The notes under the pieces are model-generated. The model did no database searches, was not told where the DNA came from, and saw nothing but the letters and a program-made list of their open reading frames with translations. This document shows positions 1,090-3,877 of a DNA stretch of 22,930 nt, one piece after another. Numbering within the stretch: position 1 is the first letter of the stretch; each line of letters opens with the position of its first letter. The translations under genes and the position numbers were made by a program. The stretch lies in assembly GCA_033762295.1 (NCBI GenBank), contig JANRLW010000021.1, positions 1 through 22,930 of the forward strand, in the 5' to 3' direction. The DNA comes from Capsulimonadales bacterium. Its GTDB lineage: Bacteria; Armatimonadota; Armatimonadia; Armatimonadales; Armatimonadaceae.

Positions 1090-1818
1090 TCAGGAGCCGA
1101 CCGCCTCGGCGACGGCCTTCTCGACCTCCTTGAGATCGACCTTGCCCGCCCAGTGGCGGACGATCTGCCCGTCCTTGACCAAGATCACCGACGGGACAGC
1201 CTTCACCCCCCACTGCTGCCAGACAGGGGCATCCGCCGCCGCGTCGAGCAGGATCGGGTAGGTGTACTTGGTCTTCTGTTTGGCGAGGAACGGGCCGACC
1301 TTCTTGGCGCCTTCCTCGTCGATGGACACGCCCACGACGGAGAACTTGCCGCCCGCAGCGTACTTCTGGTGCAGGCGCTGGAGTTCGGGCATGGCCTTGA
1401 CGCACGGCCCGCACCACGTCGCCCAGAAGTCCACCAGCAGCACCTTGCCGCCCGCCGCAAGCCCCGTTAGCGTGACCTTCTCGCCCGCCGCCGCTGTCGC
1501 GGTCGGGAGCGAGAACGCAGGCGCGGGCCGCGGCACGGGGGCGGGCAGGTAGGCGTTGGGGTCCTTGACGAACGCCTCGACCTCCTTCTTCGAGCAGAAG
1601 TAGTAGGTCTTGCCCTTGTACGCGACGGCGCCTGCGGGCTTCTCCTCGCCGTGCTCCTCGCCGTTTTGCGAGCAGATGAAGCACTCCGCCTTCGCGGGCA
1701 GCTTGTCCTTCACGACGACGGCCTTTTCTTGGGCGTGTGCCGTCGGCGGCGGGGCCGCAAGGAGCAGGCCGAGGGCAACGCCGACCGCCGCCCCGAGCCT
1801 TCCCGTGTTATTGTTCAT
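1090..1818 (-). CDS. Exported YHS/TRASH-domain plus TlpA-family thiol-disulfide oxidoreductase fusion
   Basis: Signal peptide ending AHA. CFIC...YKGKTYYFCS...F.KDP..Y is YHS/TRASH-like. LLVDFWATWCGPCVKAMPEL and WGVKAVPSVILV are TlpA/redoxin motifs. SD AAGG upstream. Confidence 0.9.
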   Translation of the reverse strand: MNNNTGRLGAAVGVALGLLLAAPPPTAHAQEKAVVVKDKLPAKAECFICSQNGEEHGEEKPAGAVAYKGKTYYFCSKKEVEAFVKDPNAYLPAPVPRPAPAFSLPTATAAAGEKVTLTGLAAGGKVLLVDFWATWCGPCVKAMPELQRLHQKYAAGGKFSVVGVSIDEEGAKKVGPFLAKQKTKYTYPILLDAAADAPVWQQWGVKAVPSVILVKDGQIVRHWAGKVDLKEVEKAVAEAVGS

Positions 1819-1832
1819 GTCGTTTTACCTTC

Positions 1833-2549
1833 TCAAAAGTTCTGCGCGAACGCGAAGCCGAGCCGCTTGTTGAACGCGGCGACGAGCGAGAACGTCCGCC
1901 CCCTGCGGTCCGACCACGAGAGCGTCGTGTGGCCGTACTTGCCGTCGCACATCGGCAGGAGCGTCACCGAGTCGGAGAGCGCGATGCTGGCCCCGAACGG
2001 GACCAGCAACTCGCGGCCCCATTCCGAGTAGGAGAGGCCGAGGTAGGGCGCGACACGCCCCCGCTCGCCGCCGATCTGCTTCTGCGCGGTGACGAAGTAG
2101 GCCATCCCCGACGGCGTCCCGATGCGGTCCGAGCTGAACCCCGCGATGATCCCTGCCCGCGTCTCCGTCTCGGTCTGGAGGAAGTAGTTGCCGATAGGGT
2201 TCAGCGTCTCGTCGGGCGCGTTCGGGTTGTACTCCAGGCCGAGTTGCAGGCGCGGGGCGACCCGCGCCGAGAGCGTGGTGCGCCAGCGCGGGCGCTCCTC
2301 GCGGGTGTTGACGTATCGCTGGCTGAACTGCCACTTGCCTTGAATGCCGCTCGCACGGAGCGGCGACCCCTCGCCAGGTCACCCCGTTCACGGGGGGAGA
2401 GTGGAGCGGAGCCGCTGCCGCTGGTCCTGCGCCCTGTCGGGCGCGGCGGCGGTGGGCGGCTTCTCCTGCTCCTGAGCGCGGGCGGCGGGCGCGGCGGACA
2501 GCAGCAGTGCCGCCGCAGCCGCGCCCGTCATGTAGCGGGAGAAAAACAT
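1833..2549 (-). CDS. Putative outer-membrane beta-barrel selenoprotein A, 238 aa, U54-T-G-U57
   Basis: Signal peptide (MFFSRYMTGAAAAALLLSAAPAARA). TGA at 2390-2388 and 2381-2379. The frame then stays open into the tracked ORF 1833..2105. Amphipathic beta strands and C-terminal Phe. Paralogous to 3170..3877. Confidence 0.8.
2346..2364 (-). promoter_or_regulatory. Candidate bacterial SECIS hairpin for gene A
   Basis: GCCGCUC-CGUGC-GAGCGGC: 7-bp stem with GU in the loop. The loop begins 21 nt after the second UGA and 30 nt after the first. Confidence 0.55.
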
Positions 2550-2560
2550 CGGGTTCGGAC

Positions 2561-2719
2561 CTACGCCTTTTTCCCCGCGTCGCTGGCGCAACAGGCGCAC
2601 CCACACGAGCAGGTGCAGGCGCCGCCAGCGCAACAGTCCGTCTGTGCGCAGCAGGCGCAGTCGTCGGGACAACAGGAGCAACACGCGGCTTCGTGAGCCA
2701 CAGCAGTCATGGAGGTCAT
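2561..2719 (-). CDS. Metallothionein-like peptide, 52 aa, 15 Cys
   Basis: Not in the ORF track. SD GAAAGGA, then MTSMTAVAHEAACCSCCPDDCACCAQTDCCAGGACTCSCGCACCASDAGKKA*. Fits neatly between arsR and gene A. Confidence 0.85.
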   Translation of the reverse strand: MTSMTAVAHEAACCSCCPDDCACCAQTDCCAGGACTCSCGCACCASDAGKKA

Positions 2720-2748
2720 GGTTCTTTCCTTTCGCTGGCCTTGTTCGT

Positions 2749-3078
2749 CTACTTGCCCGACACGAACGCGGCGATGTGGACCAGGGCGTCGGGGCGGACG
2801 CGGCAGTGGACGACCCGCCCGCGGCGCTCGGTGGCGATGAGGCCCGCCGCCCGCAGCTCATTCAGGTGGTGGGTCAGCGTGGACGGGGCGCAAGGCACCT
2901 GGCAGCGGATGCGGCAGGCGGTCACGCCGTCGCACTCGCCGCAGCACGTCCCGCTGTCGGTATCGTAGCCACAGGTCGGCCCGCAGCAGCGGATGCACTG
3001 AAATACGGCCAGCCGCGTCGGGTCGGCCAGGGCCTTAAAGATAGTCGCCAGATCGGGCGCGACGGGTTCCTCGGGCAT
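2749..3078 (-). CDS. ArsR/SmtB-family metalloregulator with a Cys-rich insertion
   Basis: FKALADPTRL...APSTLTHHLNELRAAGLIATERRGR is the winged-HTH signature. 11 Cys in total. Confidence 0.92.
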   Translation of the reverse strand: MPEEPVAPDLATIFKALADPTRLAVFQCIRCCGPTCGYDTDSGTCCGECDGVTACRIRCQVPCAPSTLTHHLNELRAAGLIATERRGRVVHCRVRPDALVHIAAFVSGK

Positions 3079-3082
3079 CAGC

Positions 3083-3129
3083 TAACCTTTCGACGAACAT
3101 CGAAATTTTCGATGTTCGTCGAAAGGTTA
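3083..3129. promoter_or_regulatory. Perfect 23-1-23 inverted repeat, likely double ArsR operator
   Basis: TAACCTTTCGACGAACATCGAAA-T-TTTCGATGTTCGTCGAAAGGTTA. Each arm contains TTCGA-N6-TCGAA. It spans the -10 box and SD of arsR. Confidence 0.8.
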
Positions 3130-3152
3130 TCACGGGCGGCGGCGAGTGTCAA
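3124..3152 (-). promoter_or_regulatory. Sigma70-type promoter for the arsR operon
   Basis: TTGACA (3152-3147), 17-nt spacer, extended -10 TGa-TAACCT (3129-3124). Confidence 0.75.
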
Positions 3153-3169
3153 CCCCGCCGCGCGAGGCG

Positions 3170-3877
3170 TCAATGGTCGGCGGTGCCGAGCGGGAAACTC
3201 GCCGCCGCGAGAGGGCCGATCTTATTGCCCCTTGCCGCCACGATCCCGAGGCGGATCGGTACGCCTCCGACAGTGCCCACCTGGCCGACGAGTCCCAGGT
3301 TGACGTAGCGACCGTCGAACTGCGCGGACAGGTTCAACCCACGCGCGACGCGGACGTTCGCGCCCGTGAGGAAGCGCCAGCGATCGCGCTCGTTGCTGAC
3401 GACCGCCGTGCCGATGTAGAGCGACAGCGGCAGCCTCGTGTTCTCCTCAATGTCTTTAGCGAGCGTGGTGAACAACCCCGACCGTCCCCCGCCGAGCGAG
3501 TCGGTTAGTACGCCCGTCGTCCAGGCGGGACGCGCCGCAGTTTCGGGGAGCAGGGTGTACGTCGCCAGGGGCCTGACAATGGACTGCTTCCACAGGTAGC
3601 CGAAGCCGACCTCAAGCCGCGGCGTGACGCCGTAGCGGACGAAGGTTTCGGTCTTGCCTGCGAGGCCGTCCGAGTGCATGGTGGCGATGAGAAGCCGCTT
3701 CTGCGGCAGTGTGGCCCCGACTGAACCAGTCGGGTTCCCGCTCTGGGCGGAATATCCAGAGGCGGGTCACAGCGGTCACGGAGGCGCGGACTGGGCGCGG
3801 GCCGCGGACGGTGCGCCAGCTACGCCCGCGAACAGCACGAGGGCGGAAATCCACCCCGCGCGGGACACTGGGATCAT
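3170..3877 (-). CDS. Putative outer-membrane beta-barrel selenoprotein B, 235 aa, U34-P-L-U37
   Basis: SD AAGGAG and ATG at 3877. Signal peptide ending AARA, then QSAPP. TGA at 3778-3776 and 3769-3767. The frame stays open into the tracked ORF 3170..3679. Amphipathic beta strands. Paralogous to gene A. Confidence 0.8.
3716..3766 (-). promoter_or_regulatory. Tandem hairpins after the UGA pair of gene B (candidate SECIS)
   Basis: CCCG-C-CUCUGG/CCAGAG-CGGG (3766-3737) starts immediately after the second UGA. A perfect 8-bp stem CCCGACUG-GUU-CAGUCGGG (3734-3716) follows. Confidence 0.45.

Follow-up and report, generated by a model that had tools for sequence, protein, structure and literature searches.

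A predicted double-selenocysteine family of outer-membrane β-barrel proteins in Armatimonadota

Genes A and B

The window analysed here is a stretch of 22,930 nucleotides (nt) from a Capsulimonadales bacterium (GenBank assembly GCA_033762295.1, contig JANRLW010000021.1), which is contig C21 of genome G000 in our numbering; the whole assembly amounts to 5.16 Mb and is 94.5% complete, and the host belongs to the Armatimonadaceae, close to Armatimonas rosea to judge from the names of database homologues. The window includes two genes, designated here gene A and gene B, that each carry two in-frame TGA codons three codons apart, and their read-through products are predicted to be exported β-barrel proteins with a pair of selenocysteine (Sec, U) residues near the N-terminus (Table 1). 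Gene A can be translated from an ATG at 2549 to a TGA stop at 1835-1833, and gene B from an ATG at 3877 to a TGA stop at 3172-3170, both on the minus strand. In the translations, the TGA pair lies within LRSTLPP-U-TG-U-PGEGSPLRASG in gene A and within ARAQSAPP-U-PL-U-PASGYSAQ in gene B. Both N-termini resemble signal peptides ending in ARA/Q, and the UxxU motif of gene B starts just 5 residues past the predicted cleavage site. Beyond the second TGA the frame remains open for 181 codons in gene A and 198 codons in gene B, in agreement with the figure of about 180-200 given in the initial annotation of this DNA. That annotation had also described A and B as paralogous exported genes with a double UGA, and its coordinates and by-eye alignments were found to be correct; the two products are 25% identical across 185 residues (BLASTP, E = 7e-5), a weak yet detectable similarity. 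A third copy of the family is present on another contig of the same genome (C35:38852-39463, minus strand; locus L086), and this copy also has two TGAs and is 77% identical to A.

Table 1. Coordinates of genes A and B, their predicted recoding elements and neighbouring features in the window
Feature	Position	Strand	Description
Gene A	1833..2549	minus	Signal peptide, N-terminal arm with U54-x-x-U57 and predicted ~12-strand β-barrel; 238 amino acids (aa) + TGA stop; clade II, 'UTGUPGEG' type
Gene A, putative Sec codons UGA-ACG-GGG-UGA	2379..2390	minus	2390-2388 (codon 54) and 2381-2379 (codon 57)
Gene A, SECIS-like hairpin	2346..2364	minus	Stem GCCGCUC/GAGCGGC (7 bp), loop CGUGC 2357-2353
Gene B	3170..3877	minus	Signal peptide, U34-x-x-U37 and predicted paralogous barrel; 235 aa + TGA stop; clade I, 'UPLUPASG' type
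Gene B, putative Sec codons UGA-CCG-CUG-UGA	3767..3778	minus	3778-3776 (codon 34) and 3769-3767 (codon 37)
Gene B, hairpin 1	3736..3752	minus	Stem UUCCGC/GCGGGA, loop CCAGA; starts 14 nt after UGA2
Gene B, hairpin 2 (SECIS candidate)	3716..3734	minus	Stem CCCGACU/AGUCGGG, loop GGUUC 3727-3723
YHS-thioredoxin gene, conserved partner	1090..1818	minus	Exported; YHS (TRASH-like CxxC...C) and TlpA/ResA-like thioredoxin (WCGPC)
ArsR/SmtB-family metalloregulator gene	2749..3078	minus	Cys-rich insertion; NCBIfam NF033788, 63.2 bits (cut-off 55); Pfam HTH_20
Inverted repeat	3083..3129		Perfect 23-nt repeat, AT-rich in a GC-rich genome; arms 3083-3105 and 3107-3129, 100% complementary
Cys-rich open reading frame (ORF), 52 aa	2561..2719	minus	Between the ArsR gene and gene A; MTSMTAVAHEAACCSCCPDDCACC; runs CC, CxC, CCxCC
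Exported protein, 182 aa	3951..4499	minus	Upstream of gene B; Cys-rich C-terminal half CCSGGNCCAKGNCCSVVGCC
ORF with resolvase (serine recombinase) domain, 822 aa	6331-8799	minus	A few kb from the operon

Conservation of the TGA pair

Relatives of gene A were sought by six-frame searches of 40 genomes, 24 belonging to the family of the host and 16 to a sister family, and matches were found in 14 of the former and none of the latter. All 17 matches with E below 1e-38, the C35 copy counted, have exactly two in-frame TGAs at the same place, and the strong matches all read PPUTGUPGEGSPLRASG. When a profile built from 20 family members (alignment A1) was compared with 301 sampled Armatimonadota genomes, 54 genomes from at least 10 taxonomic families were matched; 47 matches have two TGAs and 8 have one. 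On inspection, several matches lacking stops proved to be fragments that start past the motif, and three of these carry C-P-L/M-U just upstream. The view taken in the initial annotation, that such a pattern is very unlikely to have arisen by chance, is thus upheld by the 17 strong relatives and by the 47 two-TGA matches across the phylum.

Public databases treat the TGAs as stops. All 62 database homologues of gene A are shortened to 133-175 aa, start past the TGAs and cover 54-72% of the query, and the missing N-terminal part takes the signal peptide with it; one of them, P0006 from Armatimonas rosea, is 72% identical. This is the outcome that had been foreseen for standard annotation, namely that it would split or truncate the genes. 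If the gene callers were right and the TGAs were true stops, the genes would be pseudogenes or products of assembly errors, or else the barrel would be started internally and the TGA pair would serve as a terminator or attenuator. However, the TGA pair and the frame on both sides of it are conserved in 47 genes from many families, down to ~30-40% identity, and the upstream part always encodes a signal peptide, which an internally started barrel would lack. The TGAs furthermore align with Cys codons in homologues and are followed by a covarying hairpin (both below). An explanation by true stops is consequently so improbable that it can be set aside, and the public annotation of these genes is systematically wrong.

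Exchange of Sec and Cys at the motif

Homologues with CxxC, CxxU or UxxU at this position had been proposed as a check on the Sec assignment, and all three forms were found. The two gene A positions align with Cys-x-x-Cys (PTCAGCAGEAR) in P0086, P0089, P0110, P0123 and P0147. Among relatives of gene B, some retain UPLU, L028, L046 and L047 have CPLU, with a Cys/Sec pair at the first position, and both positions are Cys in P0065 and P0074 (CPLC). CPLC is also found in P0119 and P0186, and CPFC, CPVC and CPIC occur elsewhere. The counterparts are close in sequence around the motif, as seen for PTCAGCAGEAR and PTUTGUPGEG, and for RCPLCVAGGF and RCPLUVAGGF. An exhaustive profile search of 1.84 billion representative proteins returned 215 matches, and those covering the N-terminus have Cys at both positions. 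The named Cys-form proteins are from Armatimonadota or Fimbriimonadaceae and are titled either hypothetical or 'YHS domain-containing'.

Alignment of 81 distinct full-length members to the profile gave UU in 41, CC in 21, CU in 11 and other residues in 8 at the motif columns, with two row labels set by eye; these counts should not be read as frequencies, since protein databases lack the Sec forms and the loci were picked as best matches. The UC form was absent from the 81 distinct members covering the motif. In a quick maximum-likelihood tree, the members fall into two deep clades, each with a support value (SH-aLRT) of 100. Of the rows, 25 belong to the gene B-like clade (CU 10, CC 6, UU 4, other 5) and 56 to the gene A-like clade (UU 37, CC 15, CU 1, other 3), and at least 4 changes of the UU state are forced by well-supported branches. 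Hence, A and B are paralogues of long standing, and the family has switched between Sec and Cys repeatedly in its history.

A metagenomic protein of 209 aa (P0098) has PAC-VG-W-PGEG where its sister L083 has PTU-TG-U-PGEG. The Trp in P0098 may be genuine, or may result from translation of TGA under another code by the source pipeline.

Hairpins downstream of the TGA pairs

In bacteria, a Sec insertion sequence (bSECIS) has been modelled as a hairpin with a loop of 3-9 nt, a stem of 4-16 bp and a G in the first two loop positions, located 16-37 nt from the UGA and with a minimum free energy of at most -7.5 (PMC13188914). The gene A hairpin satisfies this model. Its loop starts 21 nt after the second UGA (UGA2) and 30 nt after the first (UGA1), its energy is -12.4 kcal/mol, and none of 200 shuffled sequences was as stable. 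To this hairpin corresponds a helix in an ungapped alignment (A2) of 30 distinct 66-nt segments of the gene A type, formed by columns 33-39/45-51 and starting 14 nt after UGA2. In the alignment, 88.6% of the cells pair, as compared with 43-50% when the partner strand is slid by 1-3 columns, and compensatory changes are seen at 6 of 7 pairs (39 cells), a level reached in none of 500 shuffles. The same helix was recovered unprompted by RNAalifold. Stem sequences vary widely (GCCGCUC/GAGCGGC, GUUGCUC/GAGCAAC, GCUGUCC/GGACAGC and GGCGAUC/GAUCGCC), as do the encoded peptides, and the loops are CGUGC, GGUUC, GGUGC or GGG. In L056 and L063 the hairpin lies 4 nt further upstream; both were kept in the alignment and scored as unpaired, and so count against the structure. 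A small helix around UGA2 (columns 11-22) was also drawn by RNAalifold but is uninformative, because its pairs never vary.

Gene B is followed by two hairpins. Hairpin 2 has an energy of -12.4 kcal/mol, a stability matched in none of 200 shuffles, and the corresponding element in gene B-like sequences likewise covaries, with compensatory changes at 6 of 7 pairs and 98.6% of the cells pairing in 10 segments, a percentage biased upward by centring the windows on the best stem. The loops of this covarying hairpin are GGUUC or GGUCC. Hairpin 1, as judged by eye and with RNAfold, is present in most sequences of the gene B type; it fills the gap before hairpin 2 and may act as a structured spacer. 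In the subgroup with CPLU-[AV]GG, the hairpin is again found 15 nt after the UGA.

Selenocysteine machinery in the host and the phylum

A search of the host genome for selA, selB, selC and selD had been suggested alongside the original proposal, and all four were found. SelA scored 439 bits, SelB 318 bits (above the cut-off) and a single tRNA-Sec(UCA) 69.9 bits. The selD gene (contig C128:21777-22718, locus L011) contains a single in-frame TGA, at CAGU as is usual, SelD thus itself being a selenoprotein, and this TGA is followed 12 nt downstream by a hairpin, GGGCC-GUC-GGCCC. As genes A and B end in TGA, this codon still serves as an ordinary stop in the host, and its code has not been reassigned.

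Across the phylum, SelA (E ≤ 1e-30) is encoded in 157 of the 301 genomes overall, and in 40 of the 42 genomes whose phylum-profile matches carry in-frame TGAs, all of these being plain counts over related and non-independent genomes. The proportion becomes 42 of 44 with the inclusion of G243 and G150, which have SelA and in which CxxU forms were seen on inspection. Within the family of the host the co-occurrence is exact: SelA was found in 8 of 8 sampled genomes with the barrel family, and 5 of 5 have neither. Of the two genomes that lack such a SelA match, G214, with a completeness of 86%, yielded a tRNA-Sec scoring 80 bits, and G281 is taken up below. The CxxC form was found in two 98%-complete genomes with neither SelA nor tRNA-Sec.

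Several observations weigh against the assignment of Sec to both UGAs, or limit what the pair can mean. In G281 (92% complete), which carries both CxxU and UxxU family genes (loci L047 and L080), SelA gave only a partial match of 32.7 bits and no tRNA-Sec was detected above the threshold; SelA is present in its congener G300. The spacing of the gene B hairpins also departs from the published model. The loop of hairpin 2 lies 39 nt from UGA2 and 48 nt from UGA1, and the model range is 16-37; the loop of hairpin 1, at 20 nt from UGA2 and 29 nt from UGA1, lacks a G at positions 1 and 2, and the energy of this hairpin is -6.7 kcal/mol. How one element could serve two UGAs is a question that has also been raised for UxxU hydrogenases (PMC13582414). 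Finally, one subfamily, from genus g7 (L030, L031, L032 and L035), has no TGA and has Gly and Ser/Thr at the two positions. Its members are 40-42% identical to B and keep the barrel and the arm flanks (SAPG-G-PL-S/T-PSAGWAAQ), and they are paralogues that lost the motif, a natural loss-of-motif variant. The U/C pair is therefore not indispensable to the barrel. Non-Cys residues in homologues had been named beforehand as a result that would speak against a Sec family: this one subfamily shows it, whereas many other homologues have Cys.

A further point on the same side concerns the decoding of UGA as Cys. As reported in PMC13582414, genes resembling tRNA-ReC, which reads UGA as Cys, are present in Armatimonadota genomes that carry UxxU hydrogenases (5 of 5), and that paper notes that one or both UGAs might then be read as Cys. 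If one or both UGAs of the barrel genes were decoded in the same way, tRNA-ReC (SelC*) would act together with SelB and the same SECIS, and the product would be a CxxC or CxxU protein, forms that are common in the family. The tRNA complement of the host speaks otherwise. ARAGORN identified 58 tRNAs in the 94.5% complete assembly, including one tRNA-SeC(UCA) and one ordinary 73-nt tRNA-Cys(GCA), and each of the 20 hits with E ≤ 1 to the tRNA-Sec model of Rfam corresponds either to the single tRNA-Sec or to an ordinary tRNA. A second candidate above the Rfam threshold (C107, 47.7 bits) was rejected, as it is an ordinary tRNA-Ser(UGA). Cys decoding by tRNA-ReC is accordingly considered improbable.

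With Sec machinery, Cys homologues and a covarying hairpin in place, the central claim of the initial annotation, that of a new UxxU selenoprotein family on exported barrels, is retained. The UGA pairs very probably encode Sec, as predicted from these genomic features.

Predicted structure and absence from family libraries

The AlphaFold2 model of gene A, computed from alignment A1, has a mean predicted local distance difference test (pLDDT) score of 70.7 and a predicted template modelling score of 0.66, and consists of 12 strands in residues 73-237. The best Foldseek matches were FapF (E = 1e-5), designed 12-strand barrels, OmpG and KdgM. In a structural search against representatives, KdgM (Z 15.8), the COG4313 channel (Z 15.5) and FapF (Z 15.4) ranked ahead of autotransporter barrels (~Z 14). 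The model can thus be placed, as a fold class only, among the 12-strand barrels typified by KdgM, COG4313 and FapF. A barrel with an N-terminal arm had been anticipated, and the predicted structure agrees in having a barrel of ~12 strands preceded by an arm of low confidence. Barrels of this kind usually have a topology that would put the N-terminal arm on the periplasmic side. Omp85/BamA is encoded by the host, and an outer membrane with barrel assembly is therefore expected.

Although KdgM/NanC porins, COG4313, FapF and autotransporter translocators are the best folds (Z 13-16 over 151-169 residues), the new proteins do not belong to their sequence families, and none of the known proteins has a CxxC or UxxU arm. 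Profile searches of PDB sequences gave no match at E ≤ 1. NCBIfam has no family at E ≤ 1 for A and B, Pfam has none at E ≤ 1 for the barrel, and no NCBIfam family was matched at E ≤ 0.01 by the YHS-fused UxxU forms or by the Cys forms. The curated cut-offs of the known UxxU, YHS and barrel selenoprotein models of NCBIfam (NF041115, NF041384, NF041027 and others) were not reached; P0103 scored 23.4 bits against NF041384, the cut-off of which is 70, via its YHS domain. It is strongly supported that A and B are paralogues that separated long ago within a family of small, ~12-strand outer-membrane barrels in Armatimonadota that has so far gone unannotated.

Gene neighbourhood

The gene for an exported protein with a YHS domain and a thioredoxin domain starts 15 nt past the stop of gene A. 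Its product matches YHS, Redoxin, AhpC-TSA and Thioredoxin in Pfam and TlpA/ResA-like models in NCBIfam, the latter below the cut-offs, and C46, C49, C75 and the WCxPC motif are invariant in its homologues. This gene adjoins the barrel gene in 12 of 12 distinct loci of the same family with enough flank, and is also found beside the C35 copy and beside barrel genes in many loci across the phylum. Moreover, one or two YHS/TRASH domains are fused ahead of the CxxC/UxxU arm in several lineages.

Between genes B and A lies a gene for an ArsR/SmtB-family metalloregulator. A gene of this type is also located upstream of the barrel gene in L015, L017, L018, L023, L086, L048 and L050, and the C35 copy repeats the arrangement ArsR - barrel - YHS-thioredoxin. 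The regulator in the window has an unusual Cys-rich insertion, CIRCCGPTCGYDTDSGTCCGECDGVTACRIRCQVPC, before the helix-turn-helix, and its relatives are 74-89% identical. Between the stop of gene B and the start codon of the ArsR gene (3078) is the inverted repeat TAACCTTTCGACGAACATCGAAA / TTTCGATGTTCGTCGAAAGGTTA, which is a candidate for the ArsR operator or for the terminator of gene B.

Two further genes in the region encode Cys-rich products. The 52-aa ORF looks metallothionein-like from its sequence; it has no match in Pfam or NCBIfam, and no tblastn match (E ≤ 1e-3/1e-4) was obtained in the loci of relatives that were searched. The 182-aa exported protein has no Pfam or NCBIfam match either, and tblastn detected counterparts in L027 (58% identity) and L018 (40%), in both cases upstream of a family gene. 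Further away, an ORF with a resolvase domain is present, and the operon region might be part of a mobile element or adjoin one.

Ten wider neighbourhoods were examined, and in four of them metal genes are located beside the module. In G230 these are CsoR, a CopA-like HMA-ATPase and a resistance-nodulation-division (RND) pump. G167 has two P1B ATPases together with a YHS protein, G006 has OEP, a CusB-like protein and an RND pump immediately downstream, and G060 has a P-type ATPase.

Proposed function

The YHS-thioredoxin partner, the YHS fusions, the ArsR/SmtB regulator, the nearby metal genes and the Cys-rich ORFs together suggest a role in the handling of soft metals in the cell envelope. The initial annotation had suggested soft-metal binding or redox chemistry, and such a function is plausible from this context. 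It is strongly supported that the N-terminal periplasmic arm carries a redox- or metal-active pair (CxxC, CxxU or UxxU) and that in the host each UGA is recoded by SelB and tRNA-Sec, presumably guided by one hairpin located past the second UGA within the coding sequence. A function of the arm in the handling of copper or another soft metal, most likely copper, is put forward tentatively, at close to an even chance. The diselenol arm would capture a soft metal in the periplasm, most likely Cu(I), and hand it to or through the barrel, and the YHS-TlpA-like thioredoxin would keep the selenols reduced or swap metal with the arm. The operon would be under the control of the adjacent ArsR/SmtB metal sensor.

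Three observations run counter to a metal function. The arm (residues 24-69) was modelled below pLDDT 50, no metal genes were found in 6 of the 10 wider neighbourhoods examined, and the structural similarity to PcoB is weak (7pge, Z 8.4, root-mean-square deviation 4.5 Å over 151 residues), with a Z score in a range that is common. The comparison with PcoB/CopB is of interest for the function, as both systems have a barrel after a disordered N-terminal metal-binding region (here, a proposed one) and both occur in metal-resistance gene neighbourhoods. A disordered His/Met-rich N-terminal region of PcoB is needed for copper efflux (PMC12509749). However, PcoB uses His and Met rather than Cys or Sec, has no sequence similarity to the family, and has a multicopper oxidase as its partner, whereas the family barrel is partnered with a thioredoxin.

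The main functional rival is the same selenoprotein with the UxxU arm as a redox element instead of a metal ligand. The arm might be a redox-gated channel plug, part of a periplasmic peroxide, disulfide or polysulfide reductase recycled by the TlpA-like protein, or a handler of chalcogen oxyanions. Redox proteins account for most of the bacterial selenoproteins known to have a U/CxxC/U motif, as far as the review tables go. The partner, which is invariable, has a thioredoxin fold with WCxPC, the closest folds include FapF, whose barrel has a plug at the N-terminus, and the absence of metal genes from 6 of the 10 neighbourhoods is in keeping with this alternative. Nevertheless, the partner always includes a metal-binding module of the YHS/TRASH type whose Cys residues are invariant, fusions of YHS domains to the barrel arm occur in several lineages, the regulator is an ArsR/SmtB metalloregulator, and copper ATPase, CsoR and RND genes adjoin the module in 4 of the 10 neighbourhoods. 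A purely redox role is therefore rated as rather unlikely, if less so than the other alternatives considered above.

Returning to metal handling, the complete arrangement, in which a diselenol-armed channel, recycling by a YHS-TlpA protein and an ArsR switch would form an undescribed envelope metal system with both Sec residues inserted 9 nt apart under a single SECIS, is a possibility of somewhat lower standing than a metal function of the arm as such. That the family is a genuine, unannotated selenoprotein family is very likely.

Relation to known selenoproteins and envelope systems

As far as term searches of reviews from 2022 and 2026 show, the UxxU entries in their tables are confined to Prx-like proteins, NF041115 and the FmdB family, one barrel selenoprotein is listed (GSU2204/MtrB-PioB, with one Sec), and neither the present family nor Armatimonadota is mentioned. 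No description of the family was found in literature searches covering openly available main texts.

The family resembles the known bacterial UxxU families in having a UGA pair three codons apart where homologues have CxxC, a hairpin in the coding region downstream, CxxU, UxxU and CxxC forms interleaved on the tree, and an occurrence tied to sel genes. It differs from them in that they have thioredoxin, ferredoxin or hydrogenase folds, whereas the motif here is on a disordered N-terminal arm of a membrane β-barrel with no NCBIfam or Pfam match. GSU2204/MtrB-PioB is an outer-membrane barrel that is listed as a selenoprotein in the review tables, but it has only one Sec, is a much larger barrel of the porin-cytochrome type and has no sequence match to the family. 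The initial annotation knew of no Sec pair on an outer-membrane barrel. A barrel with one Sec had in fact been listed already, though no description of a UxxU barrel was found in the literature searched.

SelL, a thioredoxin-fold protein of aquatic eukaryotes, had been named as the precedent for UxxU. The motif is indeed shared, but SelL has no relation to the family, which has a β-barrel fold, in fold, domain of life or SECIS type, and it is not the closest comparison because UxxU is known in several bacterial families.

With the TlpA-ScoI/CoxB and ResA systems, the operon has in common an exported TlpA/ResA-like thioredoxin that would reduce a specific client, here CxxC or UxxU, and TlpA is connected to copper through Sco. 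The partner in the Armatimonadota loci differs in its extra YHS domain and in that its presumed client is an arm on a barrel of the outer membrane. For the family as a whole, Sec insertion follows the known mechanism; the novelty lies in the protein module and in the role that it probably plays with metals in the envelope.

Implications

The family would add a phylum-wide, double-Sec member to the bacterial selenoproteome. Two closely spaced UGAs with one hairpin bear on the rules for the distance between UGA and SECIS and, if the assignment is true, some 50 natural genes with loop distances ranging from 21/30 to 39/48 nt form a ready series on the reach of SelB. The interleaved UxxU, CxxU and CxxC forms are natural experiments on what Sec buys over Cys. 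For the biology of Armatimonadota, the periplasmic arm of an outer-membrane barrel, with a dedicated thioredoxin encoded adjacent to it, would be a new site for Sec chemistry and points to selenium-dependent handling of metals in the cell envelope.

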